Origin: Planctomycetota bacterium | GTDB lineage: Bacteria > Planctomycetota > UBA1135 > GCA-002686595 | Reading direction: 5' to 3' | Length of the DNA: 25,591 bases | Assembly (NCBI GenBank): GCA_016872755.1 | Contig: VGZE01000038.1 | Span: forward strand, 1-25,591 | In this document: one piece after another, positions 596 through 19,941 of the stretch | How positions within the stretch are numbered: the first letter of the stretch is position 1 | How the letters are laid out: every line of letters begins with the position of its first letter | Program-made: the position numbers and the translations under genes | The notes under the pieces: model-generated | The model's database searches: none | Told to the model about the DNA's origin: nothing | Seen by the model: the letters and a program-made list of their open reading frames with translations, nothing else

Positions 596-1804
596 ATGAT
601 TCCAGTCCCGATCCACGCCCGGCCCGCCTTGCGGCGGCTGCTCGGCGCCTTGCTGGTCGCTTCGTGCGCGGCCCCCGTGGCCGGCCAGGTCGCTCCGTCC
701 CAGGCAGGACCTTCGGAGTCCGGCTCGGCGATCGTTCCCAAGCTGCGCGTGATGGTCGTCGGCGACTCGTGGGCCACCTACGAGGGTCCGGCGATTCGCC
801 AGGTCTTCTTGGACGCCGGCGATGGCGACAAGGACCTGCTCAACATCGGTGTCCCCGGCGCGAAGGTCGCGGTGTTCGACTCGCCCTTCTGGCTCGCGTA
901 CGGGAAGATGTTCCTCAAGCAGAACCCGACCATCGACACGATCCACTTCTCGATGGGCGGCGTCGATTTCCTGACAAGCTGGCACGCGGATGATCCGCCG
1001 GCCGTGCAGGCCGCGTTCTTCGACGACATTGCATTCCACATCCGGCACATCGCGCTTGAGCTGATGTCCGTGCGTCCGAACCTGCGCGTGCTGCTGACGG
1101 GCTACGACTTCTGGAATTTCGTCGAGCCGGTCGCGGCGCAGCCGGGGCAGTTGTGCTGGGACGCGTGGATCAACGTGTTCCACCAGCCGACTCCGGAGCA
1201 GGTCAATCTCGCGATGATGGAGATGGAGCTGCGCCTCGAGGATCTCGCTGAACAGTCGGACCGCATCGACTACGTGCGCACGATCGGCTTCCTGCAGACG
1301 CTGTACGGCTATCCGAGCAAGGGCATCCCGCCGTTCTCGTTTCGCATGCCCGACCTGAAGCTGCCCACGCCGCCCGAGGCGATGGCGGATGCGGGTCTCG
1401 ACTGCGTGCACCCGAGCGAGGCCGGCTATTACGTGCTCGCGCAGCACTTCTACGGCGCCTATTACCGCACGCGGTTCCACCCGGCCAGTGAGCTCGCGCT
1501 GCTGGGGCCGGCGCCGGGATTCGCCGGCGCGCAGAACACGGTCAAGGTGCAGGGGCTCACGCCGCTGCAACCGGCGCTGCTGTATTTCGGCTTCCGCCCC
1601 GCGCTCGAATCGGTCGGCGGTTGCACGTTGCCGCTGCTCGGCGTCGGCGAAGTCGCCGCGACGCTGGTCTTGCTGCCGGACGGATTCGGCAACGCCGGAA
1701 CGAAGTTCCAGATCCCGCTGGCACTCGAAGGCCGCATCCTGTTCACGCAGGCCGTGCAGCCCGGCTCATGTCGGGCCAGCAACGTCAAGACGACGTACTT
1801 GTAG
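596..1804 (+). CDS. Secreted SGNH/GDSL-family hydrolase (lipase/esterase-like), 402 aa
   Basis: ATG at 596 gives an N-terminal signal-peptide-like segment (MIPVPIHARPALRRLLGALLVASCAAPVAGQ). GDS block VMVVGDSWA and C-terminal DxxH block DCVHPSEAGYYVLA are typical of SGNH hydrolases. An in-frame ATG at 527 with a GAGGG 12 nt upstream is an alternative start. Confidence 0.7.
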   Translation: MIPVPIHARPALRRLLGALLVASCAAPVAGQVAPSQAGPSESGSAIVPKLRVMVVGDSWATYEGPAIRQVFLDAGDGDKDLLNIGVPGAKVAVFDSPFWLAYGKMFLKQNPTIDTIHFSMGGVDFLTSWHADDPPAVQAAFFDDIAFHIRHIALELMSVRPNLRVLLTGYDFWNFVEPVAAQPGQLCWDAWINVFHQPTPEQVNLAMMEMELRLEDLAEQSDRIDYVRTIGFLQTLYGYPSKGIPPFSFRMPDLKLPTPPEAMADAGLDCVHPSEAGYYVLAQHFYGAYYRTRFHPASELALLGPAPGFAGAQNTVKVQGLTPLQPALLYFGFRPALESVGGCTLPLLGVGEVAATLVLLPDGFGNAGTKFQIPLALEGRILFTQAVQPGSCRASNVKTTYL

Positions 1805-5739: not shown

Positions 5740-7299
5740 ATGAAAATCGTTCTCTATCAGCCCCAGCAGACCAACAAGCGCGTGCACGGGCAGTCGAACC
5801 TCGACATGCTGCCGCTCGAGCTGATCCACATCGCCGGATACCCGGTGCAGGCCGGCCACGAGTGCGTGGTGATCGACGGCTCGCTGTACGAGCAGGCCGA
5901 CGCGCACCGGCGCGTGCTGGAGGCTTGCGACGGCGCCGCGATCTTCGCGACGACCGGCATCCTCGGCTGGATGGTCTCCGATGGCTATGTGTGCGCCGAG
6001 AAGGTGCGCGCGAAGCATCCGGGGATCAAGCGCGTGATCGGCGGCTGGTTCACCAGCGTGATGCCGCACCTGCACCTGAAGGACGGCGTGTTCGACGCGG
6101 CGGTGCTGGGTCAGGGCGAGCTGACCTTCCGCGACCTCGTCGATGCAATCGGCGCGGGCACTCCGCTCGAACAGGTCGACGGCCTCGCGCTGTGGCGCGA
6201 TGGTCAGCTCGTCAAGACCGGCCATCGCGCCGTGGTCGGCTTCGAGAAGCTGCCCGAGCCGGCCTGGCACCTGATCGACTTCAAGCCCTACCGCGAGGGC
6301 CAACTGCGGGCCGCGGCGCTCAACGACCACGTGCACATGCCCGGACCGCCGTGGATCGGCAAGAAGAGCCACTACGTCGGCATCACGTACTTCTCGAGCT
6401 TCGGCTGCCCCGAGCCGTGCTCGTTCTGCTGCAGCCCGTTTGTGACCGAGCGGCGCTGGAAGGCGAAGAGCGCCGACAAGATCCTGGACGACATCCAGAT
6501 GCTGCAGGAGCGCTGGGGGCCGATCGACGTCGTGCGCTTCCACGATGCGAACTTCGGCGTGATGGAGAAGCGCACGCGCGCGTTCGCCGAGGGGATCCTG
6601 AAGCGGAACATGAAGCTCGGCTGGAACGCGTTCATCGAGACCTATTCGATCAACGACTACCAGCTCGACACGCTCGACCTGTGCGCGCAATCGGGCTACT
6701 ACGTCGCCGAGATCGGCGCGGAGTCGGGCGACGCCGAGACGATGAAGCGCGTCGGCAAGCCGATCCGCGGCGACATGAACTACAACGCGGCGGTGCGGCT
6801 GCACGACCGCAACATCTGGGCGTCGATCACCTACATCATCGGCTTCCCCTACGAGTCCGAGGAGTCGATGGTCGCGACGCTCGACGAGGCGCGGCGCATC
6901 CAACTGCGCTGCCCGAACTCGTCGACGCACGTGCTGCCGTTCCGGCCGATCCCCGGCACCTCGATGTACGACCTGGCGCAGGAGCTCGGCTTCCAGGCGC
7001 CGGAGGACATCCACTTCTGGGGCGGCCAGACCGAGTACCACCTGCAGCAGACCTGGAGCGTGATCCCGCCGCGCATCGCGCGGCTGCGCAAGCTGCACAA
7101 CCACTACACGACGCTCTACAAGGGCCTCGCTCACCGCGAGCCGGGCATGTTCGAACGGGTCGCGCGCTGGCACCTCGAGTCCGACAACATGCGCTTCCCG
7201 GTCGACGCGAAGCTGTTCGCGCTGGTCGACAAGATGGAGAAGCGGCTGTTCAAGAAGAAGGAAGTCAAGCAGGACCTGGTCGACCAGGCCCTGGGATGA
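5740..7299 (+). CDS. B12-binding (class B) radical SAM enzyme, 519 aa
   Basis: N-terminal cobalamin-binding Rossmann-like segment (MKIVLYQPQQ...LELIHIAGY...GHECVVIDGS). Radical SAM cluster motif CxxxCxxC in FGCPEPCSFCCSP. TIM-barrel-like core and a C-terminal extension. The fold is that of class B radical SAM methyltransferases/cyclases; the substrate is unknown. Confidence 0.85.
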   Translation: MKIVLYQPQQTNKRVHGQSNLDMLPLELIHIAGYPVQAGHECVVIDGSLYEQADAHRRVLEACDGAAIFATTGILGWMVSDGYVCAEKVRAKHPGIKRVIGGWFTSVMPHLHLKDGVFDAAVLGQGELTFRDLVDAIGAGTPLEQVDGLALWRDGQLVKTGHRAVVGFEKLPEPAWHLIDFKPYREGQLRAAALNDHVHMPGPPWIGKKSHYVGITYFSSFGCPEPCSFCCSPFVTERRWKAKSADKILDDIQMLQERWGPIDVVRFHDANFGVMEKRTRAFAEGILKRNMKLGWNAFIETYSINDYQLDTLDLCAQSGYYVAEIGAESGDAETMKRVGKPIRGDMNYNAAVRLHDRNIWASITYIIGFPYESEESMVATLDEARRIQLRCPNSSTHVLPFRPIPGTSMYDLAQELGFQAPEDIHFWGGQTEYHLQQTWSVIPPRIARLRKLHNHYTTLYKGLAHREPGMFERVARWHLESDNMRFPVDAKLFALVDKMEKRLFKKKEVKQDLVDQALG

Positions 7300-7850: not shown

Positions 7851-7957
7851 CCGCTTCCGTGTCGTGCGCCTGGGGCTTTCGCCACGGTGTTTTCGCACGC
7901 ACGTCCAAACCTATCGATCAATCCGATCAACGCACAGGAAGAGGAAAGAGAACCTAC

Positions 7958-8308
7958 ATGGCAACGAAGAAGAATGCGGGCGGCTCGTCGAAGCCGATCA
8001 AGAACGTGCTCAGCAAGTCGGCCCTCGCCAGCCACATCGCGGGCTCGACCGGCATCGCGTCGAAGGACGTGAAGGCCGTCATGGGCGCGCTCGAGGGCGC
8101 GATCTGCGGCTCGATCAACAAGAAGGGCGCGGGCATGTTCGTGCTGCCCGGTCTGCTCAAGATCACCGCGGTCAACGTTCCGGCCAAGCCGAAGCGCACC
8201 GGCATCAACCCGTTCACGGGCCTCGAGCAGACCTTCGCCGCCAAGCCGGCGAGCGTGAAGGTCAAGGTCCGCCCGATGAAGAAGCTGAAGGACGCGGCGA
8301 AGGGCTAG
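7958..8308 (+). CDS. HU/IHF-family nucleoid-associated DNA-binding protein with a Lys/Ala-rich N-terminal extension, 116 aa
   Basis: Strong RBS GAGGAAAGAG 8 nt upstream of ATG 7958. The HU fold signature includes the beta-arm and RTGINPFTG (R-x-G-R-N-P-x-T-G-like) motif: KSALASHIAGSTGIASKDVKAVMGALEGAI...GMFVLPGLLKITAVNVPAKPKRTGINPFTGLEQTFAAKPASVKVKVRP. The first ~20 residues (MATKKNAGGSSKPIKNVLSK) form a basic tail. Confidence 0.85.
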   Translation: MATKKNAGGSSKPIKNVLSKSALASHIAGSTGIASKDVKAVMGALEGAICGSINKKGAGMFVLPGLLKITAVNVPAKPKRTGINPFTGLEQTFAAKPASVKVKVRPMKKLKDAAKG

Positions 8309-8315
8309 TCCCCTC

Positions 8316-8380
8316 TGCTTCGCTCGCCAGCGAAGCACTGCGAGACGGGCCGGATCCCACGCGGGATCCGGCCCGTCTCG
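8316..8380. terminator. Two tandem GC-rich hairpins between convergent genes (HU + strand, aldo-keto reductase - strand); likely bidirectional terminator
   Basis: Hairpin 1: TGCTTCGCT-cgcc-AGCGAAGCA (8316-8337). Hairpin 2: a perfect 18-bp stem CGAGACGGGCCGGATCCC-acgc-GGGATCCGGCCCGTCTCG (8341-8380) followed by CTTTCC. The U-tract is weak, as is usual in high-GC genomes. Confidence 0.5.
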
Positions 8381-8407
8381 CTTTCCGTGCAACGGGCGCG
8401 GCGCGAC

Positions 8408-9400
8408 TCAGTAGCGCGCCGGCGGCTCGGGCTTGTTCGCGACGATCGCCTCGATGCGCGCGAGCACCTCGCCGGACAATTTCGGCAGCGCGTCGAGTGC
8501 CTTCAAATTCTCCGCGAGCTGCTCGCGCTTCGTCGCTCCGAGAATGACCGTGCTGACGCGCGGGTTGAGCGCGCACCATGCGATGGACAGTTGCGCGAGC
8601 GAGCAGCCGAGCTCGCGCGCCAGCACGCCGAGCTCGCGCGCCTTGGCGAGGTTCGCGCGGCCGGCGCTGCTGTCGAGCGCCTCCTCGCGCAGCCACTTGT
8701 ACTCCGGCAGCGCCATGCGCGAACCGGCCGGCACTCCGCCGTCGTACTTGCCGGTCAGCAGACCCGACGCGAGCGGCGACCAGATCGTCGTGCCCAGCCC
8801 GAGCGCGTCGTAGAGCCGCGCGAACTCGCGCTCGACCTTGCGGCGCGCGAACAGGTTGTACTCGGGCTGCTCCATCGTCGGCGGGGCCAGACCCAGGTCG
8901 CGCGCGATCCCGTGGGCCTGCGCGATCTCGTCGGCGCGCCACATGCTCGTGCCCCAGTAGAGGACCTTGCCCTGCGCGACCAGGTCCCCCATCGCGCGCA
9001 CGGTTTCCTCGAGCGGCGTGTCGAGATCGGGCCGGTGGCAGAAGTACAGATCGAGGTACTCGACCTGCAGGCGTTCCAGCGCGTTGTGGCAGCAATCGAC
9101 GACGTGCTTGCGCGACAGTCCCTTCTGGGTCGGCAGCTTGCCGCCCCAGAAGACCTTCGACGACACGCAGTAGCTGTCGCGGCGCCAGCCGAGCGTGCGC
9201 AGCGCGCTGCCCATGATGCGCTCGCTCTCGCCGGCCGCGTAGGCCTCGGCATTGTCGAAGAAATTGACGCCCGCATCGTAGGCCTGCTTCATCAGCTCGG
9301 CGGCGGCGCGCTCGTCGAGTTGCTGCGAGAAGGTGACCCAGGAGCCGAAGGAGAGCAGGGAGAGCTTGAGGCCGCTCTGGCCGAGGCGACGGTACTGCAT
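8408..9400 (-). CDS. Aldo-keto reductase family oxidoreductase (Kv-beta/Tas-like subgroup), 330 aa
   Basis: MQYRRLGQSGLKLSLLSFGSWVTF...GVNFFDNAEAYAAGESERIMG...LDLYFCHRPD...GKVLYWGTSMW...IWSPLASGLLTGKY carries the AKR catalytic tetrad context (D, Y, K, H blocks). It lies 44 nt downstream of the MBOAT-SGNH gene on the same strand. Confidence 0.85.
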   Translation of the reverse strand: MQYRRLGQSGLKLSLLSFGSWVTFSQQLDERAAAELMKQAYDAGVNFFDNAEAYAAGESERIMGSALRTLGWRRDSYCVSSKVFWGGKLPTQKGLSRKHVVDCCHNALERLQVEYLDLYFCHRPDLDTPLEETVRAMGDLVAQGKVLYWGTSMWRADEIAQAHGIARDLGLAPPTMEQPEYNLFARRKVEREFARLYDALGLGTTIWSPLASGLLTGKYDGGVPAGSRMALPEYKWLREEALDSSAGRANLAKARELGVLARELGCSLAQLSIAWCALNPRVSTVILGATKREQLAENLKALDALPKLSGEVLARIEAIVANKPEPPARY

Positions 9401-9444
9401 GAGGGGCGCGCGAAAGAGTGACGGGAGGGCGCAAGAGCGTAACG

Positions 9445-12012
9445 TCAGCGAATCCCGAGCAGCTCGGGCCGCGCCGACAACTCACCGTACAGGCGCGCCG
9501 CGAGCAGTCGATGACCGTTCGCGTTGGCGAGGTGGTACATGTCCGAGATCATGATCTCGGACAGCGCGGGCTCCTGCACACCCTTGCGGATGTCGATGGT
9601 GAGGAAGCCGAGCCGCTCGGCAAGGGAGCGGACCTGGTCGATGCGCATGGTCATGCCGAACTCGACCGTCGCGTCGGCCTCGAACACCGGGACTTCGAGA
9701 TACACGGGGATCGCGCCCATTTCGACGCACGCGCCGTGAAAGCGGCGCAGGGCCCACATCTCGATGTCCTCGAGCACGCCGGCCACCCGGCGACGCACCT
9801 CGCCATCGTCCAGTTCCGGCGTGATGCCGGCCCGCCTGTAGGCGTCCTCGAGCTCGGGCATGAATTCCGGGCGTGTGCGCGCCACGGCGATCAGGTACTT
9901 GATGGTCGACCCGATGTGGTTCGACAGCAGCACGACGTCGGGCTCGTACGCGGCGACCTTGCGTTCGAGCTGGAACATGTGGTGGAACACCGAGTACGCG
10001 GGGACCGAGAAATTCAGGATCTCGTAGCGCAGGCCGTTGACCGAGGACTGCTTCTGGTTCAACTGGAGCTCGACCTGGCGCTCCCAGACCTCCGCGTCGG
10101 AGACCCCCATGCCCATCTCGACGCAAGTGCCGAGCAGCGCGATGCGCCAGGTCCGCGGAGGCTTGCGGAGCTCGTATTCGCGATCGCGCATGCCCGCGCT
10201 ATTGATCGTGTGCTGTTGCCCACCGATCTCGAGCCGCTGCGACGGCGGGAGCTCGAACTCGAGCAGGCCGGGCACGGGGCGCACGATCGCATTGCGCAGG
10301 AACGTCGGCACGTCCTCGGGATCGAACTGCGCGCCCGACCAGGCCCACACCACGCGGCGGTCGCGCTGGATCAGCCGGTCGTAGTACGCGATGCCGTCCG
10401 CATCGGCGTCCTGTCGCGCGCTCGATTCCACGCGCAGCGGAGTCAAGGCCGCCGCGATCGGCGCACCGAGAGCCGCGCTCGCGCGCTCCCAGCCGAGCAG
10501 CAGGAGCAGCGCACAGGCCGCGGCACGCGCCCACGCACCGGCGGATCCGGAGCGCGCCGCGGCGACGGCGCGCGCGAGCTCGGGCCGCAACTGCACCAGC
10601 ACGCCCGCGCCAATGAGCAGCGCGAGCACGCCTGTCAGCACGAACCAGTCCCGCAGCGGGCTCGCGGCGGCCTGCTTCAGCACGCCCGACCACTCGCTCA
10701 GTGATCGGCTCGACCACAGCGACCACAAGAGCGACGTGGTCGCGAACACGCCGAGCACGCGCAGCGCATGGCGCAACGCGGCGCCCAGGCGCGGCGGCGC
10801 CGCCGGCGCGCCCGGCGCCAGCACCGCGGGCCCGGCGGCGCGACGCGCCTCGGCCAGCACGCTCCACAGCGCCAGCAGCGCCGCGACGCCCCAGAACATG
10901 CCGTCCCAGGCCAGCGGCAGCCCGCCCTGCAGGAAGAACCACTGCAGCGCATGCAGCCACCACGTCGCGACGAACACGAGCGCCGTGGACGCCACCAGCG
11001 CGAAGGTCGTCCCCCGCATGCGCAGGCGCATGTAGGCCGGGTAGTAGACGAGCTTCTTCATGAACTCGGTCCAGTAGACGTTCGTGCGCCGCCAGCTGTC
11101 GCTGAAGCTGTGCGCCAGCAGGTACGCGTGGTTCGTCTCGGGGAGCTGGAAGCCGAACAGGTGCAGCATCCCGATCACCAGGTGGAAGTGCCCGGAGATG
11201 CGCAGGTAGAGCAGGTAGCTCGAGCAGACGAACATCAGCACGCCGCCCAGGTCGTGCACGTCGCCGGCGGCCGGGGTCAGGTACGCGTGGACGGCGCGGT
11301 AGGCCAGCAGGTGCAGGATCCCGCGCAGCATCCAGCGCAGCCCGCGCGCGTGGATCTCGCGCGCCGGGGCCGCGTAGTACGTGCGCTGGAAGGTCCGGTA
11401 GTCGACGACCGGAAAGAGCAGGAAGCAGACGTTCGGCAGCAGGAAGAAGTACGCGACGCGCATCCAGATCGACGCGGGCCGCGGCTGCGTGTGCTCGTCG
11501 TACAGGTAGATCGCGCCCCGGAACAGGAACATCGACGCGACCAGCGGTACCACCAGCGACTGCTCCGGCGCGCTGCCTCCGGGAAGGCGCGGCGCCGGGA
11601 TCCAACCGGCGCGCAGCGCGACGAGCAACGCGCCGCATGCGAGCAGGCTCGCGACGCGCCAGCGGATGTGCGCGCGCAGGTTGCACAGCAGGAACAGCAC
11701 TCCACCGAGCACGCCGACCGCCAGTGCATCGACCGGGCCGAGCACGCAGGCGAAGGCCACCGCGCTCAGCGCAACGAAGAACGGCAGCTTCCAGGCACCG
11801 GGCAGCCACGCGTGCACGCAGTAGCCGAGCGCGAGCACCGGCAACACGAGCGGCAGTCCGAGACCGGCCTCCAGTTCCAGCGCCGCGATGGCGCCGCACA
11901 GCATTCCCAGTTGCAGCGCATGCGCGACAAACGCCTTCCAGGCACGGGGTTCTGGTTCCGCATGCACGGGTACCGGCGCTGCATGCGAGGCAAGTGCGAG
12001 CCAACGCCGCAT
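9445..12012 (-). CDS. Fused MBOAT (AlgI/DltB/PatA-like membrane O-acyltransferase) plus C-terminal SGNH (AlgJ/AlgX/PatB/DltD-like) domain protein, 855 aa
   Basis: Start ATG (complement 12010-12012) gives MRRWLALASH. The N-terminal ~470 aa are polytopic and include the MBOAT signature region LPETNHAYLLAHSFSDSWRRTNVYWTEFMKKLVYYPAY (compare AlgI NFNSPY...[21 protein letters not shown]) and a conserved His in ISGHFHLV. The C-terminal ~380 aa have a GDS-like block (IALLGTCVEMGMGVSD) and a DxxH block (SDMYHLANANGHRLLAARLY) of SGNH hydrolases. The upstream 267 codons of the track ORF overlap the methyltransferase gene on the other strand and were trimmed. Confidence 0.75.
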   Translation of the reverse strand: MRRWLALASHAAPVPVHAEPEPRAWKAFVAHALQLGMLCGAIAALELEAGLGLPLVLPVLALGYCVHAWLPGAWKLPFFVALSAVAFACVLGPVDALAVGVLGGVLFLLCNLRAHIRWRVASLLACGALLVALRAGWIPAPRLPGGSAPEQSLVVPLVASMFLFRGAIYLYDEHTQPRPASIWMRVAYFFLLPNVCFLLFPVVDYRTFQRTYYAAPAREIHARGLRWMLRGILHLLAYRAVHAYLTPAAGDVHDLGGVLMFVCSSYLLYLRISGHFHLVIGMLHLFGFQLPETNHAYLLAHSFSDSWRRTNVYWTEFMKKLVYYPAYMRLRMRGTTFALVASTALVFVATWWLHALQWFFLQGGLPLAWDGMFWGVAALLALWSVLAEARRAAGPAVLAPGAPAAPPRLGAALRHALRVLGVFATTSLLWSLWSSRSLSEWSGVLKQAAASPLRDWFVLTGVLALLIGAGVLVQLRPELARAVAAARSGSAGAWARAAACALLLLLGWERASAALGAPIAAALTPLRVESSARQDADADGIAYYDRLIQRDRRVVWAWSGAQFDPEDVPTFLRNAIVRPVPGLLEFELPPSQRLEIGGQQHTINSAGMRDREYELRKPPRTWRIALLGTCVEMGMGVSDAEVWERQVELQLNQKQSSVNGLRYEILNFSVPAYSVFHHMFQLERKVAAYEPDVVLLSNHIGSTIKYLIAVARTRPEFMPELEDAYRRAGITPELDDGEVRRRVAGVLEDIEMWALRRFHGACVEMGAIPVYLEVPVFEADATVEFGMTMRIDQVRSLAERLGFLTIDIRKGVQEPALSEIMISDMYHLANANGHRLLAARLYGELSARPELLGIR

Positions 12013-12045
12013 GCAGGCGAAGATACCATTCCGGATCCTCGCCCC

Positions 12046-12825
12046 ATGGAACACGGCCACTACTCGGCGCTGGCCGGCGCCTATGCGGCGCACCGCGCCG
12101 GCTATGCCGACGCGGTCGCCGGGCGCGTGCTCGCCGCGGCCTGCGCCGCGGCGAACAAACCCGCGCAGGAGCTCGAGGTCGCCGACGTGGGCGCAGGCAC
12201 CGGAATCTGGTCGCGCGTGCTGGCACGCGCAGGCTGCCGGGTCCGCGCGGTCGAGCCGAACGACGCGATGCGCGAGGCCGGCGCTTCGGATCCCGCCAAC
12301 GGCTCGATTCGCTGGCACGGCGGTCGGGCCGAGGCCACCGAGCTCGCGGCCCGTTCCTGCGATCTCGTCACGATGGCATCGGCGTTCCACTGGACCGAGT
12401 TCGAGGCGGCGCTGGCGGAATTCGCGCGCGTGCTGCGCCCGCACGGCGTCTTCGCGGCACTGTGGAACACGCGCATCGTCGACGAGTCGCCGCTGCTCGC
12501 CGAGATCGAGGCGGAACTGCGCCGGCGCGTACCGCACTACGTGCCGCGCTCGTCGGGGCGCTCCGCCTTCTGCGACAGCCTGTCGGAGCGGCTGCGCGCC
12601 TGCGGCCGCTTCGCGCTCGTCGAGACCTGCGAGGGACGCCACGTCGAGGCGCAGAGTCGCGAGCGCTACCTCGGCATCTGGCGCTCGGTCAACGACGTGC
12701 GCGTGCAGGCCGGCGAACAGACCTTCGCCGACTTCCTCGAGTGGCTCGCGTGGCGCCTGCGCGATGTACCGCGGATCGAGGCCCCGTACCTGACGCGCTG
12801 CTGGATCGCGCACCTGTCGACCTAG
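12046..12825 (+). CDS. Class I SAM-dependent methyltransferase (Methyltransf_11/25-like), 259 aa
   Basis: Motif I LEVADVGAGTGIWSRVLA. An acidic residue after beta2 (RVRAVEPNDAM). Post-I DLVTMASAFHW and RVLRPHGVFAA. Divergent from the MBOAT-SGNH gene, with a 33-bp gap. Confidence 0.8.
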   Translation: MEHGHYSALAGAYAAHRAGYADAVAGRVLAAACAAANKPAQELEVADVGAGTGIWSRVLARAGCRVRAVEPNDAMREAGASDPANGSIRWHGGRAEATELAARSCDLVTMASAFHWTEFEAALAEFARVLRPHGVFAALWNTRIVDESPLLAEIEAELRRRVPHYVPRSSGRSAFCDSLSERLRACGRFALVETCEGRHVEAQSRERYLGIWRSVNDVRVQAGEQTFADFLEWLAWRLRDVPRIEAPYLTRCWIAHLST

Positions 12826-12899
12826 TCGGCGCGTGCCGCACGGGGTCTGATAGACTCGCTCGTGCGTCCCCTCGCGCGCTGGTTCGCGCCGGACGAACC

Positions 12900-13469
12900 A
12901 TGGATCCTGCCCACCGGACCGGCGCGCCGACCCAGCAAGGCACCGTGTACTGGCTCACAGGCCTCGCCGGGGTCGGGAAGTCGACGCTGGCCCGGCTGCT
13001 CGCCGCGCGCCTGCGCGCCGCGGGTCGCGCCGTCGTGCTGCTGGACGGCGACGAGCTGCGCGCGCGGCTGTTTCCGGAGGCCGGCTACGCGCGCGAAGAA
13101 CGTCTGATGCTGGCGCGGCGTTACGCCGGCCTGTGCGGCTTGGTGGCAGCGCAGGGTCCGGACGTCGTGTGCGCGACGATCTCGCTGTTTCCGGAGATCT
13201 GGAACGAGAATCGCCGGCTCCTGCCCGCCTATCGCGAGGTGCTGGTGCGCGCGCCGGCCGAGGAGCGCCGCCGGCGCCGGCCCGAGTTGCACGCCGGCAC
13301 GGCCGACTCGCGCGGACCGGTGGTGGGCGCGGAGCTGGCGGCGCCCGAACCGCACGAACCGCACGCCATCCTCGACAATGACGGCCGCCGATCGCCCGAG
13401 CAACTGATCGACGAGCTGTTGGCCGCATTCGCCGCGCGCGGCCCAGCCTGCGGCATGGGGCGGCCGTGA
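12900..13469 (+). CDS. cysC: Adenylyl-sulfate (APS) kinase-like P-loop kinase, 189 aa
   Basis: GTVYWLTGLAGVGKSTLARLL (Walker A in the APS kinase context GxxxWxTGLSGSGKST), followed by LLDGDELR (compare LDGDNVR), ISLFPEIWNENRRL, then YREVLVRAPAEERRRRRP and C-terminal EPHEPHAILDNDGRRSPEQLIDELL. Co-operonic with a sulfotransferase. Confidence 0.8.
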   Translation: MDPAHRTGAPTQQGTVYWLTGLAGVGKSTLARLLAARLRAAGRAVVLLDGDELRARLFPEAGYAREERLMLARRYAGLCGLVAAQGPDVVCATISLFPEIWNENRRLLPAYREVLVRAPAEERRRRRPELHAGTADSRGPVVGAELAAPEPHEPHAILDNDGRRSPEQLIDELLAAFAARGPACGMGRP

Positions 13470-15811
13470 GCCTCGCGCTCGAATTCCCGACCTGGACCAA
13501 GGCCGAGGCGCTCGAGCAGCTGGCGCCGCGGCTCGCCTGCGCGCGCGTGCTGCCGCAGGTTCGCACGGACGTCCGCGGCTGGCGCGCCGATCCCGACGCC
13601 GTGCTGGCGCTCGTCCGCGCGCGCGGCTGGCTCGACCAGCCGCTGATCGTGCGCAGTAGCGCGCGCGGCGAGGATCAGGCCGGTGCCTCGCTCGCGGGCC
13701 GTTTCCCGTCGATTCGCGACTGCCGCGGCGAGGCGGCGCTGCGCTCGGCCATCGAGCAGGTCGCCGCCGCCTTGCCGGCCGACGACGACCAGCTCTTCGT
13801 CCAACCCTGCCTGTGCGATGTGCGCTCCAGCGGCGTCGTGTTCACGCGCGATCCCGGCAGCGGCGGCCACTATGCGATCGTCGCCTACGACCAGCGCTCC
13901 GGACGCACCGACCTGATCACGTCCGGGCGCGCGGTCGAGCCGCGCACGTACCTGCACCACGAGAGCGCTCCGCCCGCGGCCGATCCCGAGCTGGTGCGCG
14001 TGCTCGAGCTGTCGCGCGAGTTGCAGCGCTTGCTCGAGTGCGCGGCGCTGGACATCGAGTATGCGTGTGTCGACGACGGCCTGCCCTACCTGCTGCAGGT
14101 GCGCGCGCTGGCCGCCGCGGCGGGCGCGCCAGCCGAGGCCGACGAAGAGGCCCGCGCGCTGCGCCGCGTGCAGCGGCGCGTCGAAGAACTCGGGGGCCCG
14201 CATCCGTACCTGCTCGGCGGTGCGCCGATCTTCGGCGCGATGCCGGATTGGAATCCGGCCGAGGTGCTGGGCGCGCGCCCGCGCCCGCTCGCGTTGTCCT
14301 TGTACCGCGAGCTGGTCACCGACGGGATCTGGGCCTACCAGCGGCGCAACTACGGCTATCGCGACTTGCGCAGCTTCCCGCTCGTGCATTCCTTTGCCGG
14401 GCTGCCCTACGTCGACGTGCGCGTGAGTTTCCACTCCTTCGTGCCGGCGGACCTCGGTGACGAGCTCGGCGGCCGGCTGGTCGACGAGTACGCGCACCGT
14501 CTGCTGGCCCGGCCGCCCGACCACGACAAGGTCGAGTTCTCGATCGTGGACTCGTGCGCGACGTTGGACCTGGAGCAGCGCCTGGCGCGCCTGCCGGCCG
14601 CGCGCTTCTCCCCCGCCGATCGCGCGCGCATCGCGGATTCGCTGCGCACGCTGACCAATCGCATCACGTCCGGTCCGCAGTGCTTGTTCCGGCTCGACCT
14701 CGACAAGATCGCGGCGCTCGAGCGCCGTCAGCAGGAATTCGCCGGCCGCGCCGCTGGGCTCGATCCGCTGTCGCGCGCGTACTGGCGCCTGGAGGACTGC
14801 AAGCGCTACGGAACGCTGCCCTTCGCCGGCATCGCGCGCGCGGCGTTCATCGCGCTGCAGATCCTCGATTCGCTGGTCGGCACGGGCCTGCTCGAGCGCG
14901 CGGAGCGCGAGCTCGTGCTGCACTCGTCCGACAGCGTGCGCGCCCGGATGGACCGCGACCTCGCGATGCTGCCGCGCGCGCAGTTCCTGGCGCGCTACGG
15001 CCACCTGCGGCCCGGCACCTACGAGGTCACGACGCCGCGCTACGACGAAGCGCCCGATGCGTATTTCGGTGCGCCGGGCGGCGGCGCCGCGCGTGCCGAG
15101 CCGCCGCACCGGCGTTTCGAACTCGACGCGCCGCGCAAGCGCCGCCTCGATGCCGAACTCGCCGCGCAGGGCCTCGCGCACGACGCGCGCTCGCTGTTCG
15201 AGTTCTTCTACGATGCGATCGAGGGGCGTGAGCACGCCAAGTTCGTCTTCACGCGCAGCCTCAGCGACGCGCTGGTCGATCTGGTCGAGGTGGCGCGCAA
15301 CGCCGGCTTCTCGCGCGACGACCTCAGCTACGCTGAATTCGATGCGCTGCGCGGCCTGCATTCGAGCTGCGACGATCCGCGAGCGGTGCTGGAGCGCTCG
15401 ATAGAGGCCGGTCGCGCGCGTCACGCCGTCACGCGCCGCCTGACGCTGCCCGCGCTGATCACCGCTCCGTCCGACGTGCTGGCCTTCCACCTGTCGCCGA
15501 GCGAGCCCAACTACGTCGGGCAGGCGCGCGTGGAGGGCCCGGCGCTCGCCGCAGCCTGTGCCGGGGAGAGCCTGCGCGGCGCCATCGTGCTGCTGCCGAA
15601 CGCCGACCCCGGACACGATTGGATCTTCGCGCACGGCGTGGCCGGCTTCGTCACGCAGTACGGCGGTTACAACTCGCACATGGCGGTGCGCGCCCTCGAA
15701 CTCGGCGTCCCCGCGGTGATCGGCGCCGGCGAGGAGCTGTATCGACGCTGGTCGCTGGCGCGACGGCTGCGCCTGGACTGCTTGAACCGCAAGGTCGAGG
15801 TGCTGGCATGA
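13466..15811 (+). CDS. PEP-utilizing enzyme, PEP synthase / pyruvate-phosphate dikinase-like phosphotransferase, 781 aa
   Basis: GTG start overlaps the cysC stop (GTGA). N-terminal PPDK_N-like nucleotide-binding region (VRSSARGEDQAGASLAGRFPSI compares with SSATAEDLPDASFAGQ). C-terminal phosphohistidine mobile domain (GGYNSHMAVRALELGVPAVIGAGE compares with GGRTSHAAIIARELGIPAVVG). There is no PEP mutase signature. Confidence 0.8.
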   Translation: MSLALEFPTWTKAEALEQLAPRLACARVLPQVRTDVRGWRADPDAVLALVRARGWLDQPLIVRSSARGEDQAGASLAGRFPSIRDCRGEAALRSAIEQVAAALPADDDQLFVQPCLCDVRSSGVVFTRDPGSGGHYAIVAYDQRSGRTDLITSGRAVEPRTYLHHESAPPAADPELVRVLELSRELQRLLECAALDIEYACVDDGLPYLLQVRALAAAAGAPAEADEEARALRRVQRRVEELGGPHPYLLGGAPIFGAMPDWNPAEVLGARPRPLALSLYRELVTDGIWAYQRRNYGYRDLRSFPLVHSFAGLPYVDVRVSFHSFVPADLGDELGGRLVDEYAHRLLARPPDHDKVEFSIVDSCATLDLEQRLARLPAARFSPADRARIADSLRTLTNRITSGPQCLFRLDLDKIAALERRQQEFAGRAAGLDPLSRAYWRLEDCKRYGTLPFAGIARAAFIALQILDSLVGTGLLERAERELVLHSSDSVRARMDRDLAMLPRAQFLARYGHLRPGTYEVTTPRYDEAPDAYFGAPGGGAARAEPPHRRFELDAPRKRRLDAELAAQGLAHDARSLFEFFYDAIEGREHAKFVFTRSLSDALVDLVEVARNAGFSRDDLSYAEFDALRGLHSSCDDPRAVLERSIEAGRARHAVTRRLTLPALITAPSDVLAFHLSPSEPNYVGQARVEGPALAAACAGESLRGAIVLLPNADPGHDWIFAHGVAGFVTQYGGYNSHMAVRALELGVPAVIGAGEELYRRWSLARRLRLDCLNRKVEVLA

Positions 15812-16425
15812 AGACCGTGCTCGTCTCGCAGCGCGTCGAGATCGCTGCTCCGAGCGGCGAGCGCCGCGACGCGCTGGCCCAGGACTGGCACGCTTTCCTG
15901 GCGCGCTGCGGATTGGCGCCGATCCTGGTCCCCAACCACGCGGGCAACGCGCGGGCCCTGCTCGGAGCGCCGCACTGCGGCGTGCTGCTGACCGGCGGCA
16001 ACGACCTCGCCAGCCTGGGCGGCGACGCGCCCGAGCGCGACGAGGTCGAGCGCTTGCTGGTCGAGCACGCACTCGCGGCGCGCCTGCCGGTGCTGGGCGT
16101 GTGCCGAGGAATGCAGTTCCTGGTCGATCGCTGCGGCGGCGCGCTGCAGCCCGTGGACGGTCACGTCACGCAGCAGCAGTGGATCGAAGTGGACGGCCGG
16201 CGCGAGCTGGTCAACAGCTACCATCGCTACGGCTGTCGCGCGGTGCCGCCCGAGCTCGAGGTCTGGGCGCGCGCGGACGACGGAGTGGTCGAGGCGGTGC
16301 GCCACCGCGCGCTGCCGCTGGTCGGGATCATGTGGCACCCCGAGCGCTTCGCGTCGCCGCGCGCAGCGGACGTCGAGCTGTTCCGCCGCGTGTTCGGCGC
16401 GCGCGGTCCGGAGGCGGCCCCATGA
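15808..16425 (+). CDS. Class I glutamine amidotransferase-like protein (peptidase C26 / PuuD gamma-glutamyl hydrolase family), 205 aa
   Basis: ATG overlaps the upstream stop (ATGA). Nucleophile elbow LPVLGVCRGMQFL. His/Glu block GIMWHPE. Size and motifs fit a stand-alone GATase-1/C26 hydrolase. Confidence 0.75.
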   Translation: MKTVLVSQRVEIAAPSGERRDALAQDWHAFLARCGLAPILVPNHAGNARALLGAPHCGVLLTGGNDLASLGGDAPERDEVERLLVEHALAARLPVLGVCRGMQFLVDRCGGALQPVDGHVTQQQWIEVDGRRELVNSYHRYGCRAVPPELEVWARADDGVVEAVRHRALPLVGIMWHPERFASPRAADVELFRRVFGARGPEAAP

Positions 16426-17156
16426 GGGCGCTGATTCTCGCCGCCGGCCGTGGCAGCCGGATGGGCGCGGCCACCGAGCACGGCCCCAAGGGCATGCTCG
16501 AAGTGCTGGGCCGACCGCTGCTGGCCTGGCAAATCGACGCGCTGCGCGCGGCGGGCGCGAGCGAGATCGCGATCGTGCGCGGCTACCGCGGCGAAGCCCT
16601 GCGCTTCGACGTGCGCTACTACGACAACCCGCGCTGGGAGAGCACGAACATGGTCGCGTCGCTCGGCTGCGCCGCCGAGTGGCTGCGCGCAGGCCCCTGC
16701 CTGGTTTCGTACGCGGATCTGGTCTATCCGCCCGAGGCGCCGCGCCGACTGGCCGAGACCGCCGCGCCGATCGCGCTCTTGTACGACGCGCACTGGCGGG
16801 AATTGTGGTCGCAGCGCTTCGCCGATCCGCTCGACGACGCGGAAGCGCTGCGCCTGGACGCGCGCGGGCGTGTGCTCGAGATCGGAGGCCGCCCGCGCGA
16901 CTACGCGCGCATCGAGGGACAGTACATGGGCCTGTTCCAGCTCACGCCCGAGGGCGCCGAACGGCTGTTCGCGCGCAGCGCCGAACTCGAGCCGGCCGCG
17001 CGCGACCGGCTCGACATGACGACGCTCTTCGCGCGCTGCGTGCGCGCGGGCGACGAGCTGCACGCCGTGCGCTACGACGGCTGGTGGTGCGAGATCGACC
17101 AGCCCTCCGACCTCGCGCTGGCCGAGCGGATCGCGGCCCAGGGGACGGCCCGTTGA
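16422..17156 (+). CDS. MobA-like nucleotidyltransferase (NTP_transf_3; sugar/phospho-alcohol nucleotidylyltransferase, LicC/CofC-like), 244 aa
   Basis: ATG overlaps the upstream stop (ATGA). N-terminal MRALILAAGRGSRMG...KGMLEVLGRPLLAWQIDAL is the G-x-G-x-R NTP-binding loop of MobA/LicC/GlmU-type nucleotidyltransferases. Confidence 0.75.
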   Translation: MRALILAAGRGSRMGAATEHGPKGMLEVLGRPLLAWQIDALRAAGASEIAIVRGYRGEALRFDVRYYDNPRWESTNMVASLGCAAEWLRAGPCLVSYADLVYPPEAPRRLAETAAPIALLYDAHWRELWSQRFADPLDDAEALRLDARGRVLEIGGRPRDYARIEGQYMGLFQLTPEGAERLFARSAELEPAARDRLDMTTLFARCVRAGDELHAVRYDGWWCEIDQPSDLALAERIAAQGTAR

Positions 17157-18004
17157 GACCCGAGAATCGCTCGCGCCTCGGACCACACGACGTCGTGCTG
17201 GCCGCGCACCCGGGCTCGGGTTCGAGCTGGATCGGCACGCTGCTCGTCGAACTCGGCCTGTTCTACGCATCGGGCCACGAGGAGCGGCTGCTCGACTCGA
17301 GCAGCCAGCGCAGCGAGCCCTGGATCGAGGCGGGAACGGCTCCGGCAGCCGGGCTCGCGCGCCCGCGCCTGGCGCGCGCGGAACGCGCCCGGCACCTGCC
17401 GTCGCTGCACGAGCGCGACGCGCGCCACCCGAGCTTTCGCGAGCCGGTCCGCGTCGTGTTGAGCAACGACAGCGCGCTGGGCTGGAAGTGCGAGCGGCCG
17501 GTCGTGCTGCTGGTGCGCGACGGCCGCGATGCGCTCCTGTCGCTGTACCAGCACCTGGTGGGGTTCAGCGGTCTGCAGGCGTCCTTCGCCGAGTACCTGG
17601 CCGGCGGCGGCGGCGCCTGGCCGCCGCCCGCGCACAGTTGGGCGGTCGCCAACCTGAGCTGGCTCGACGCGACGCCGCGCGAGCGCCTGCTCGTGCTGAC
17701 CTTCGAAAGCTGTCGGGCCGATCCGCTCGCGCGCTTTCGCGAGCTGACCGGGTTCCTCGGCGCGCCGCGCAGCGACGCGGAACTCGAGCGCGCGATCGCG
17801 GCGAGCAGCTACGACGCGATGCGCCAGGCGGAGGAGCGCGCCCTCGGCCCCGAGGCCGCCGCCGCGAACGCTCCGCGCTTCATGCGCCGGGGCCGCATCG
17901 GCGAATGGCGCGAGGTCTACGACGCCGCGTTGCTGACGCGCTTTTCGGGCCTGCCGCGCCGCGCGCTCGAGCGCTTCGGCTACCCGACCGCCGAGATCCC
18001 CTGA
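17153..18004 (+). CDS. PAPS-dependent sulfotransferase, 283 aa
   Basis: TTG start overlaps the upstream stop (TTGA); a GTG about 45 nt downstream is an alternative. 5'-PSB loop HPGSGSSWIGTLL (compare PKSGTTW). 3'-PB motif LVRDGRDALLSLYQH (compare RNPRDVxVSxYHF). C-terminal FESCRADPLARFRELTGFLG (compare YEDLKxDPxxEIxKIxxFLG). Confidence 0.75.
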   Translation: MRPENRSRLGPHDVVLAAHPGSGSSWIGTLLVELGLFYASGHEERLLDSSSQRSEPWIEAGTAPAAGLARPRLARAERARHLPSLHERDARHPSFREPVRVVLSNDSALGWKCERPVVLLVRDGRDALLSLYQHLVGFSGLQASFAEYLAGGGGAWPPPAHSWAVANLSWLDATPRERLLVLTFESCRADPLARFRELTGFLGAPRSDAELERAIAASSYDAMRQAEERALGPEAAAANAPRFMRRGRIGEWREVYDAALLTRFSGLPRRALERFGYPTAEIP

Positions 18005-19941
18005 GTCGCGCCGGCGAACGCCTCGACGACGGTGCAGCGCGGCTCGATCAACGCGAGCTCCTGCACCGATTGCGTGCAGATCCAGGTGTGCAGGAAGGCG
18101 GTCTGCTTCGGCATCAGGAACACCTGTCCGGTGCGGTGATCGACCCGGATCAGGTGATCGCCGGGCGCGAGCAGGTCGGGCTCGAGCGGCGCCCCGATGC
18201 GCAGCGCGTGCACGAGTCGCGGGAAATCGTACGGCGAGCGCAGCTTGAGCTCGCGGTGGCGCAGTTCGACCAGCGTGAGCGCTTCGAGCGGCACGCCCAG
18301 CTCGGTCTTGGTCTGCATGAACAGATAGGGTCGGCAGGCGAGGTCGTACTCGACCGCGGCGCGCAGCAGCGCACCGTGCGGACCCGCAAACCACTCGGGG
18401 CGCGTTGCCACGTACGCGACCAGCAACCGATCGAACTCGGCGCGCTGCGCGTGCATCGCCGCGTCGGCCAGCTCGCCGCGCCACATGTACTTGACCATGT
18501 CCTCGAAGCACTCGAGCTGATTGCGCCAGCGCTCCGCGAAAGGCCCGCTCGCCTGCGTGTCCATCCAGCGCGAGAACTGGTCCACCTCGTCGCGGAAGCG
18601 CGCGATGCCGAGCCGGTCGAGCAGCTGCAGCGTCGCATACAGTCCGCGACAATCGTTCAGCAGGAACAGTGCGATCGCGAAGCGCAATCCGGCGATGTAG
18701 TCAGGGAACGGAACCTCGCGCGTGGAGACGACGATCTCCCCGCCCGTCGCCGGGTCGTCCTCGGGCAGCAGCGTGACGCCGTATTCCTCGGTGTGCTCGC
18801 GATAGCCGGTGTTGTTCAGCCACATCAGCGGGTAGACCAGGAATCCCTGAGCGCCCCTGCGCAGCAGGTCGTCGATGCCGTCCTTGAAGCTGTCGAGCGT
18901 CTCGCCGGGCATCGGCCACAGGAGCTCGACCATCGACGCCCGACGGTGCTCGTTCAGGTGGCGCTGGATGCGCGTGTAGGGTTCGCGCTCGAGTCCCGTG
19001 CGGCGCGCACGTTCCAGCACTTCCTTGCTCATCGACTGCAGCGAGAACATGTGCCGCGAGAGCATGCCGGCGTCGGCGACGAGATTCGAGATCTGCTCTA
19101 CGCGCTCGGGCTTCACCTTCGAGCTGTTGAACAGGATGCGCTTGAGATTGCCGTACTTGCGCGAGACCGCGACGATCTGCTCGGCGATCTCGAGGTCGCG
19201 CGGCAGGATGCCGAAGTTCGCGTCGGTCAGCGACATCACGCGGATGCCGCGCTTGCCGATCCACTCGAGCTCCTCGCGCAGCCGCCCCAGGTCCTGCTGG
19301 TAGATCTTCTGTCCGATGGCGCCGCCCCAGTAGCAGAACTCGCACGCGAATGGGCAGCCCCGATTGGTCTCGAACAGCGCGATCTCGATGTGGCCCACCT
19401 CGTCGAAGACGCCGCTCAGCCACGGCGACGGCAGCTCGGACAGGTCCTGCACGCGCGGCGGCCCCGGCGTCGTGACGAACTGGCCGTCGCGCGCGAAGGT
19501 CAGCCCGCCCACGCGCTGCCAATCGGGCCTCGACTCGCTGAGTTCGAGCAGCACGTCGCGGAACGGCCGCTCGCCCTCCGAGTTGCACACGGCCACGTTC
19601 TCCCAGCCGGTCTGCACGAAACGCGGAGCGACGTTCATCACTTCGACGCCGCCGAGCAGGAAGCGCGTGCGCGGCAGCAACCCGCGCAACGTCGGGAGCA
19701 GCCGCCGCACGATGCCGGCGTTCCACGTGTACACGCTGAACGCGACGAGATCGGGGTTGCGCGCCACCAGATCGCGGATCACGTACGAGGCCTTGACCGT
19801 GTTTTGCTGCCGGTACAGCTCGACGTTCCAGGTCGCGCGCACTTGTGGGTCCGCCATCGCGAACGCCTTCAAGTAGCCGCCGACGAGCGGCGACAGTCGG
19901 GCGAGCCCGTCGAGGTGCACGATGACCGCGTTGCGCTTCAT
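17980..19941 (-). CDS. B12-binding (class B) radical SAM enzyme, paralog 2, 653 aa
   Basis: Start ATG (complement 19939-19941) gives MKRNAVIVHLDG, preceded by GAAGG. B12-binding N-terminus. CxxxCxxC in RGCPFACEFCYWG. Long C-terminal extension. Same architecture as the 5740-7299 gene. The upstream 89 codons of the track ORF were trimmed. Confidence 0.85.
   Translation of the reverse strand: MKRNAVIVHLDGLARLSPLVGGYLKAFAMADPQVRATWNVELYRQQNTVKASYVIRDLVARNPDLVAFSVYTWNAGIVRRLLPTLRGLLPRTRFLLGGVEVMNVAPRFVQTGWENVAVCNSEGERPFRDVLLELSESRPDWQRVGGLTFARDGQFVTTPGPPRVQDLSELPSPWLSGVFDEVGHIEIALFETNRGCPFACEFCYWGGAIGQKIYQQDLGRLREELEWIGKRGIRVMSLTDANFGILPRDLEIAEQIVAVSRKYGNLKRILFNSSKVKPERVEQISNLVADAGMLSRHMFSLQSMSKEVLERARRTGLEREPYTRIQRHLNEHRRASMVELLWPMPGETLDSFKDGIDDLLRRGAQGFLVYPLMWLNNTGYREHTEEYGVTLLPEDDPATGGEIVVSTREVPFPDYIAGLRFAIALFLLNDCRGLYATLQLLDRLGIARFRDEVDQFSRWMDTQASGPFAERWRNQLECFEDMVKYMWRGELADAAMHAQRAEFDRLLVAYVATRPEWFAGPHGALLRAAVEYDLACRPYLFMQTKTELGVPLEALTLVELRHRELKLRSPYDFPRLVHALRIGAPLEPDLLAPGDHLIRVDHRTGQVFLMPKQTAFLHTWICTQSVQELALIEPRCTVVEAFAGATQGISAVG

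Follow-up and report, generated by a model that had tools for sequence, protein, structure and literature searches.

This analysis concerns a stretch of 25,591 nucleotides from a Planctomycetota bacterium (GenBank assembly GCA_016872755.1, contig VGZE01000038.1), hereafter the window, and one gene on its reverse strand that encodes a membrane-bound O-acyltransferase (MBOAT) domain and an SGNH-fold domain in a single polypeptide. In known bacterial envelope acylation, an MBOAT works with a separate SGNH protein, or an acyltransferase family 3 (AT3) membrane domain is fused to an SGNH domain (PMC12148441). An earlier note on this DNA had started from the premise that MBOAT and SGNH are separate proteins in bacteria, which agrees with this literature. 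The fused gene comprises the following features.

9445–12012, reverse strand: fused MBOAT-SGNH gene, 855 amino acids, start ATG at 12012, stop codon at 9445–9447
10828–11940, reverse strand: MBOAT core, residues ~25–395 (predicted fold)
11080–11082, reverse strand: Asn311 in 'WRRxNxYW', aligned with the His of 'RWH' (DltB His289)
10951–10953, reverse strand: His354 in 'TWxLHxxQWFW', equivalent of DltB His336, the invariant MBOAT catalytic His
10432–10788, reverse strand: membrane helices after the His354 helix, residues 409–527 (model secondary structure, AlgI-type alignment, Arg-rich loops)
10372–10389, reverse strand: 'AYYDRL', residues 542–547, candidate internal acyl-shuttle motif
9448–10245, reverse strand: SGNH-fold domain, residues ~590–855 (predicted structure)

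A single-chain MBOAT-SGNH family

The open frame of the fused gene is uninterrupted and its codon bias uniform, with a third-position GC content of 0.86, as for real genes in this window of ~70% GC. In the database, the identical protein (P0001) is called as 819 amino acids, with its start at Met37. We prefer the ATG at 12012, because a start at Met37 drops Gln34 and Leu35, which are at least 90% conserved in homologues, together with a helix (residues 25–44) that is confident in the AlphaFold2 model. The start codon of the source annotation (window region 11902–12012) was probably mis-called. A longer frame reaching up to a GTG at 12813 was discounted, as it overlaps the divergent methyltransferase gene on the opposite strand.

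Both folds are present in the AlphaFold2 model, which was built with 58 homologues as input (mean predicted local distance difference test score 87.7, predicted template modelling score 0.80). The membrane domain has a multi-helix MBOAT fold, and all of its top matches in the fold search were MBOATs, including DltB, PORCN, and HHAT. The C-terminal domain has a three-layer alpha/beta/alpha SGNH fold, modelled with high confidence. Profile comparison of the N-terminal domain with Bacillus cereus DltB and three other canonical MBOATs gave hhalign probabilities of 91%–96.5%, and a tblastn search with residues ~152–390 led to annotated MBOAT genes on plasmids (E 7e-5 to 1e-2). Together with hundreds of full-length homologues, these results bear out what the earlier note had proposed, one polypeptide carrying an MBOAT and then an SGNH fold in its C-terminal half.

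Domain models did not recognize either half. A Pfam scan of the fused protein gave no MBOAT or SGNH match even at E ≤ 1 (PF03062 and PF13472 included) and no match to the AT3 domain (PF01757), and PF03062 is on record for none of the 120 best listed homologues. NCBIfam scans gave only a marginal GDSL match (E 0.004) and no curated model that covers the fused family, and the PDB, searched by sequence and by profile, yielded only marginal SGNH matches and no MBOAT. These failures are a limit of sensitivity and no evidence against the domains. The hidden Markov model (HMM) search with PF03062 and PF13472 that had been proposed as a check, with no matches at E ≤ 1, is therefore wrongly negative.

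The MBOAT active site was aligned with B. cereus DltB, a Deinococcus AlgI-like protein, a Lawsonia MBOAT, and a Klebsiella DltB-like protein, and residue conservation was counted over 121 aligned family sequences, window protein included. His354 aligns with 'GIWH'/'GLWHG' of canonical MBOATs and is kept in all 121 sequences. Asn311 lies 43 residues upstream and is kept in 117; in B. cereus DltB, the spacing from 'RWH' to 'IWH' is 47 residues, equal to 336 minus 289. The string cited earlier as the MBOAT signature, FSDSWRRTNVYWTEF, is present at residues ~303–317. We considered whether 'WRRTN', compared with 'WRRWH', means that the universal MBOAT His has been lost, and rejected this, since the position is that of DltB His289 and the true catalytic residue, His354, is invariant. 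The role of the invariant His (DltB His336) has been described, and the DltB His289 position is Asn or Asp in ACAT1, DGAT1, HHAT, and PORCN (PMC11035591). Given a eukaryote-like Asn/His pair at these two positions, the MBOAT active site of the fused family is predicted to be intact. Further family-specific residues are conserved near the motif, namely His277 (120 of 121) and Tyr313 (118 of 121). By its fold and predicted catalytic residues, the fused protein is a member of the MBOAT superfamily, with acyl transfer as its putative activity.

The family is large and spans many phyla. We found at least 387 homologues at E ≤ 0.001 among 8,000 candidates scored, 664 clusters at E ≤ 1e-30 in an exhaustive search of 1.84 billion representatives, and at least 529 loci in a scan of one genome per species. 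The 120 best listed homologues are 721–1249 amino acids long, nearly all covering at least 90% of the query. Loci occur in Planctomycetota (closest, with 41%–50% identity), Gemmatimonadota, Rhodothermales, Calditrichota, Chloroflexota, Verrucomicrobiota, Acidobacteriota, Methylomirabilota, Burkholderiales, Gammaproteobacteria, Nitrospirales, and others. Almost all are from metagenome-assembled genomes (MAGs); in one cultured organism, Microvirga sp. VF16, the fused gene lies on a complete plasmid. An error of assembly or sequencing that joined two genes is so improbable that we treat it as excluded, since the same architecture recurs in hundreds of independent assemblies, that plasmid among them, and the frame shows no sign of the frameshift that the earlier note had held out as a way to refute the fusion. 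Automatic pipelines label members of the family 'DltB', 'AlgI', or 'SGNH hydrolase'. We found no description of the MBOAT-SGNH fusion or its gene cassette in the literature searched, a search that did not extend to the InterPro and UniProt architecture tables.

Carrier protein, ligase, and the linker between the domains

The two genes most telling about mechanism lie elsewhere in the window and were overlooked in the earlier note.

20072–20329, forward strand: carrier protein of 85 amino acids, 'GGVLDS' (Ser41), PP-binding E 0.0014
20334–22055, forward strand: fatty acyl-AMP ligase (FAAL)-like adenylate-forming ligase, 573 amino acids, AMP-binding E 2e-40

The carrier open reading frame (ORF) sits between a radical S-adenosylmethionine (SAM) gene and the ligase gene. 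It was masked in ORF lists by an extension from 19922 and is also hidden by overlapping longer, spurious ORFs. The Ser of its GG(I/V)LDS motif is invariant and aligned with the DltC Ser in a multiple alignment, and five homologous carrier proteins match PP-binding at E 1.6e-5 to 3.3e-4. A BLASTP comparison of the window carrier protein with DltC gave no alignment, so the link to DltC is seen in the multiple alignment and in a weak NCBIfam match. In the same scan, the top-scoring model was ACP_for_OlsHI, at 72 bits. We rejected an assignment as the acyl carrier protein (ACP) of ornithine-lipid synthesis, since this score is below the cut-off and indicates a related ACP subfamily only; the OlsH/OlsI system involves no MBOAT or SGNH protein (PMC12493201). 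For the ligase, the best NCBIfam model was PRK09192, a fatty acyl-AMP ligase (263 bits, below cut-off), and not DltA.

The closest relatives of the window protein have the same pair of ACP and FAAL-like ligase, and in distant members the fused gene is followed by a gene for 84–85 amino acids and then an AMP-binding ligase, often with a gene of the acyl-CoA dehydrogenase fold. HMMs built on the carrier, ligase, and dehydrogenase proteins detected the carrier (one subfamily throughout) at 61 of 80 genome loci, the ligase at 50, and the dehydrogenase at 39, across many phyla, with most misses on truncated contigs. The partner genes are usually immediately downstream of the fused gene and mostly co-oriented. 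Distant cassettes are embedded in loci for polysaccharides (genes for Wzz, Wzy, flippase, Bac_transf, and UDP-glucose dehydrogenase), and the pairing of carrier and ligase persists where the rest of the neighbourhood changes. These conserved neighbours are the best evidence for a carrier-protein donor, as for DltB, rather than acetyl-CoA, and it is most likely that the fused family is acylated from a carrier protein in a Dlt-like way and not fed by acetyl-CoA as AlgI and PatA are.

The opposing view is that the protein is a fused O-acetyltransferase of the AlgI or PatA-PatB type, taking acetyl or another short acyl group from acyl-CoA, while the carrier and ligase serve another pathway. Its membrane domain has the extra C-terminal helices of AlgI/PatA-type MBOATs and not the shorter DltB layout, AlgI-like proteins score slightly higher than DltB in hhalign, Joint Genome Institute pipelines label relatives 'AlgI', and one relative lacks both partner genes nearby. 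However, such frequent partners across unrelated phyla, adjacent and co-oriented in most cases and retained as other neighbours change, would be hard to explain if they were unrelated to the fused protein, and we judge an acyl-CoA donor improbable.

In the main clade, in which the SGNH nucleophile is Ser, the partner enzymes differ from those of the window. Its ligase scores above cut-off for TIGR01733, an amino-acid adenylation model, and its dehydrogenase (loci L003, L005, and L007) most resembles PigA and RedW, which are prolyl-carrier-protein dehydrogenases (464 and 430 bits, just short of the cut-offs). The resemblance of these enzymes to makers of pyrrolyl-carrier proteins suggests that the group moved to surface polysaccharide in the main clade is pyrrole-2-carboxyl or another oxidised aminoacyl. 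A complete cassette of this kind (L007) is found on plasmid pMVF16-2 (NZ_CP069356.1) of Microvirga sp. VF16, an alphaproteobacterium, in a region without any listed gene in the PLSDB gene table.

7873–14136: the whole Microvirga cassette
7873–9018, reverse strand: dehydrogenase
9022–10593, reverse strand: ligase
10699–10989, reverse strand: carrier protein
ending at 14136, forward strand: fused Ser-type gene

Many genomes contain two to four tandem fused paralogues, apparently with one shared carrier protein (L082, 4818–16015; L079, L029, L031, L037, L042, L058, L075–L077, and L087), which suggests that one donor serves several acceptors or positions. A plasmid of Klebsiella electrica (L010, 2256–6308) carries an unfused Dlt-like set comprising DltD, a 40-amino-acid ORF that is possibly DltX-like, an MBOAT, an AMP-binding protein, and an ACP.

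The segment that joins the two domains contains a candidate for the acyl shuttle. Beyond the His354 helix, the model has helices at residues 409–434, 453–474, and 490–507. The first aligns with the last helix of DltB, and the other two are equivalent to the additional pair found in AlgI/PatA-type MBOATs. The loops at 391–408 and 475–489 are Arg-rich, as expected of cytoplasmic loops. In this model, the helices of residues 409–527 would return the chain to the extracytoplasmic side. There follows the motif xYY[DE]xL, in which Tyr544 is conserved in 121 of 121 sequences, Tyr543 in 120, and Leu547 in 119; YY[DE]x[LIMV] was found in 90 of 94 genome ORFs. The motif is modelled as a short helix between segments of very low confidence (residues 531–540 and 550–563), as would be expected of a mobile arm.

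In AlgI/PatA-type MBOATs and in the microprotein DltX, the chain ends on the outer face in an FxYxxF motif, whose Tyr is acylated by the MBOAT before the acyl group is handed to the SGNH partner (PMC12148441). With Tyr544 and Leu547, the window protein repeats the Y-x-x-hydrophobic spacing of FxYxxF, and the position after the last helix fits. We consider xYY[DE]xL the likely internal acyl shuttle of the fused family. A Tyr-bearing segment placed exactly between two catalytic domains is a natural 'Rosetta stone' for the proposed relay, and this placement lends independent support to the acyl-Tyr shuttle model.

The SGNH domain, its cysteine subclade, and the proposed relay

The C-terminal domain belongs to the SGNH superfamily by fold, and the window copy lacks both the Ser and the canonical Asp and His. 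Three of its sites are listed below.

10123–10125, reverse strand: Cys630 at the block I nucleophile position ('LLGTCVEMG', compared with 'LLGxSxxMG' in the family)
9916–9921, reverse strand: Asn698-His699 ('SNH', block III region), with a Cys-clade-specific Asn
9511–9549, reverse strand: degenerate block V, ISDMYHLANANGH, residues 822–834, with Tyr826 and Leu828 in the canonical Asp and His columns

Block I of the family usually reads 'LLGxSxxMGxGV' and block V 'WDxHPNxxGH', with the consensus W-D-x-H-P-N. The nucleophile column holds Ser in 106 of 121 sequences and Cys in 15. Ser, Asp, and His occur together in 106 of the 121, and none of the 15 Cys sequences has the canonical block V Asp or His. 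Two details of the earlier note need correction here. Its 'GDS-like' block reads G-T-C in the window protein, with Cys630 and no Ser. Its DxxH block, 'D-M-Y-H', was drawn from the string SDMYHLANANGH, which is indeed present (residues 823–834), but is off register with block V of the family: in D824-x-x-H827, the Asp lies two columns before the canonical Asp and the His one column before the canonical His. A His in that earlier column is found in only part of the Cys clade. At the block II column, the window protein has Ala672, and 95 of the 121 sequences have Gly.

The Cys subclade is small and, in genomes, confined to Planctomycetota. Its 15 sequences are the window protein, P0001–P0010 (P0001 being the window protein itself), P0012–P0014, and P0022, and its members have about 40%–90% identity to the window protein. 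A further 142 representatives and 97 genome ORFs yielded only three more Cys-type genes, all from Planctomycetota. In the SGNH pocket or close to it, Glu632 is kept in 14 of 14 members, and His699 in 14 of 14, compared with 78 of 106 in the Ser clade. Asn698 is present in 13 of 14, whereas most of the family lacks it and the Ser clade most often has Ala at this column (61 of 106). The linker motif of the Cys clade is YYDR in place of YYEx, and the MBOAT domain has three fixed differences (His221, His275, and Lys319). The Cys is retained at about 40%–90% identity, and both domains and the linker have changed along with it. This pattern speaks for selection and against decay, and suggests a changed but functional chemistry. 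Cys630 would probably form a thioester intermediate; to our knowledge, a thiol-based SGNH transferase has no precedent.

This domain could instead be a pseudo-enzyme or binding module in the Cys subclade, leaving the MBOAT, with or without the Tyr, to acylate the acceptor directly as eukaryotic MBOATs do. The replacement of the canonical Ser, Asp, and His and of the block II Gly by Ala fits such a role, as does the absence of a Pfam SGNH match in the Cys clade when many Ser-clade members are recognized by PF13472. Yet the Cys has not drifted in any of the 15 sequences, Glu632 and His699 are invariant, a canonical block III Asn has been gained, and the fold is modelled with high confidence. The concurrent shift of the linker motif from YYE to YYDR also suggests that the parts are still functionally coupled. 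We therefore regard a pseudo-enzyme as unlikely, although it is the most serious of the rival readings.

A hydrolase, either an esterase or a thioesterase that releases, trims, or proof-reads the acyl group, is very improbable. The solved structures closest to the C-terminal domain in the fold search are mostly esterases, such as EstA, TesA, and Axe2, but the transferases PatB, OatA, and SsfX3 are also among its neighbours, and SGNH hydrolases and transferases are not separable by fold alone (PMC12148441). In addition, a hydrolase fused to an acyl-translocating MBOAT would make a futile cycle.

We propose, with a probability of roughly 60%, that the single-chain MBOAT-SGNH protein is a transmembrane acyl relay fed by a carrier protein, in which DltB-type and DltD-type functions, and probably the shuttle, are fused. 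In the window, the FAAL-like ligase (20334–22055) would adenylate a carboxylic acid, probably fatty or otherwise modified, and load it on Ser41 of the 85-amino-acid carrier protein (20072–20329). The acyl-carrier protein would dock on the cytoplasmic face of the MBOAT domain, and the His354/Asn311 site, open to the outer face, would pass the acyl group to Tyr544 of YY(D/E)xL in the flexible linker, close outside the membrane. The linker would then carry it to the SGNH domain, tethered on the extracytoplasmic side, and onto the nucleophile there, which is Ser in most members and Cys630 in the Planctomycetota subclade. From there, the group would be moved to an extracytoplasmic acceptor, probably a surface polysaccharide in the main clade and possibly a molecule connected to the neighbouring phosphoramidate pathway in the Cys subclade.

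Several observations weigh against this relay. The carrier protein and ligase of the window are 8 kb from the fused gene, across a divergent operon, and neither partner gene occurs within 10 kb of one Cys-clade member (P0006, locus L012). AYYDRL shares with FxYxxF only the Tyr and the last hydrophobic position, the Phe residues being absent. The C-terminal domain has no detectable sequence similarity to DltD in an hhalign comparison (3%). The canonical SGNH Asp and His are missing throughout the Cys subclade, and 5 of its 15 members have no His at all near block V, so the SGNH domain of this subclade may be inactive or use other chemistry.

Neighbouring genes and known systems

The operon divergent from the fused gene resembles a pathway for O-methyl phosphoramidate (MeOPN). 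It begins with a SAM methyltransferase gene that starts at 12046, 33 bp away, as described earlier. Its genes, and the radical SAM gene that follows it on the opposite strand, are listed below.

12046–18004, forward strand: divergent operon, O-methyl-phosphoramidate-like (Pfam and NCBIfam matches, synteny)
12046–12825, forward strand: SAM methyltransferase
12900–13469, forward strand: adenosine phosphosulfate (APS)-kinase-like protein, PRK05541 131 bits (cut-off 127)
13466–15811, forward strand: pyruvate phosphate dikinase (PPDK)-like protein, candidate glutamine kinase, PRK05849 821 bits (cut-off 501)
~15808–16425, forward strand: class-I glutamine amidotransferase (GATase), best model gamma-glutamyl-CDP-amidate hydrolase, NF045546 108 bits (cut-off 250)
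16422–17156, forward strand: nucleoside triphosphate (NTP) transferase, NTP_transf_3 E 3e-21
~17084/17153–18004, forward strand: sulfotransferase-fold protein
17980–19941, reverse strand: B12-binding radical SAM enzyme of the KedN5-like C-methyltransferase family, 303 bits, below cut-off

We take PRK05541 and PRK05849 to represent Cj1415 and Cj1418 of Campylobacter jejuni, and Cj1415–Cj1418 presumably belong to the same four fold families as the kinases, GATase, and NTP transferase of this operon. In C. jejuni, Cj1415–Cj1418 make 3'-phospho-CDP-amidate, the donor for MeOPN, from glutamine, ATP, and CTP (PMC11800397), and MeOPN is so far known only from Campylobacter (review, PMC6429109). Sulfation, which the APS-kinase-like and sulfotransferase-fold neighbours might have indicated, was rejected because the NCBIfam matches point to the phosphoramidate pathway instead. 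These neighbours most likely belong to an MeOPN-like pathway, a predicted activity in which the sulfotransferase-fold protein might use 3'-phospho-CDP-amidate, which is like 3'-phosphoadenosine phosphosulfate (PAPS).

The whole gene set is syntenic beside Cys-clade genes in two other contigs, L001 (47% identity) and L011 (a Planctomycetaceae MAG), and absent beside two other Cys-clade members. In L011 (5697–8630), the APS-kinase-like and PPDK-like genes are fused into one protein of 977 amino acids, which supports a functional coupling of the two. The radical SAM ORF, conserved in the same cluster, was listed as 742 amino acids; its start is probably at 19941, giving 653. We interpret the phosphoramidate genes as an accessory module linked in some members, the carrier protein and FAAL-like ligase being the usual partners, with conserved synteny suggesting a possible tie of the module to the fused enzyme. 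It is a tentative idea, and rather doubtful as a whole, that the relay proceeds via a Cys thioester and delivers a FAAL-activated, possibly radical-SAM-methylated acyl group onto a surface molecule that is also given methyl-phosphoramidate.

Outside this conserved cluster, the window contains a second B12-binding radical SAM gene (5740–7299, forward strand). An ORF at 596–1804 (forward strand) had been described as a secreted SGNH hydrolase unrelated to the fused protein. It has a signal-peptide-like N-terminus and 'VVGDSWA' and 'DCVHPS' motifs, but its match to Lipase_GDSL_2 is weak (E 0.013). The likely counterpart in L002, a gene for 402 amino acids at 12135–13343, was matched by length only and has no Pfam match on record.

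Among known systems, the fused protein appears to work most like the Gram-positive Dlt pathway. Ligase, carrier protein, MBOAT, candidate Tyr shuttle, and SGNH domain parallel DltA, DltC, DltB, DltX, and DltD. Unlike in Dlt, three of these parts are in one polypeptide, the ligase is FAAL-like in the window and amino-acid-adenylating in the main clade and not DltA, and the window host is of the Gram-negative type, without teichoic acid. Asn at the DltB His289 position, the Cys nucleophile of the window copy, and the lack of detectable DltD similarity are further differences. We do not file it as a Dlt orthologue, because the ligase is of the wrong type and teichoic acid is absent.

The AlgI/AlgJ/AlgX, PatA/PatB, and WssH/WssI systems share with the fused family the extra C-terminal MBOAT helices, a Tyr motif after them (predicted to face outward in the fused family), and a coupled SGNH domain, which in those systems is a transferase acting on a surface polymer. 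They consist of separate proteins, use acetyl-CoA, and have FxYxxF at the very C-terminus, whereas xYY[DE]xL of the fused family is internal and runs on into the SGNH domain, and the conserved partner is a carrier protein. The AT3-SGNH proteins OatA and OafA/OafB are also single chains in which a membrane acyltransferase is followed by an extracytoplasmic SGNH domain, with a relay thought to pass via a Tyr, but the AT3 membrane fold is unrelated to that of MBOATs, which the fused family matches. Eukaryotic MBOATs (PORCN, HHAT, GOAT, and ACAT/DGAT1) use acyl-CoA and act directly on the acceptor, without an SGNH domain or carrier protein.

The likeness to the C. jejuni MeOPN pathway (Cj1415–Cj1418 plus methyltransferases) concerns the operon only and comprises the two kinases, a GATase closest to gamma-glutamyl-CDP-amidate hydrolase, the NTP transferase, and the SAM methyltransferase. 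In contrast to C. jejuni, the window has a sulfotransferase-fold protein in place of the Cj1421/Cj1422 transferases, and its set is accompanied by a B12 radical SAM enzyme, an ACP, a FAAL-like ligase, and the MBOAT-SGNH fusion, on a Planctomycetota-like contig where the pathway is predicted from its genes.

A large, multi-phylum family of fused MBOAT-SGNH proteins fills a missing combination in the scheme of envelope acylation. With everything in one protein, it lends itself to structural and biochemical study, and a cultured organism, Microvirga sp. VF16, has a complete cassette. The conserved carrier and ligase partners imply non-acetate acyl decoration of surface polymers in Gram-negative and uncultured phyla. 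In the window, the Cys variant beside a predicted phosphoramidate pathway suggests that planctomycete envelopes carry new chemistry, and, if true, this would be the first phosphoramidate decoration pathway outside Campylobacter.

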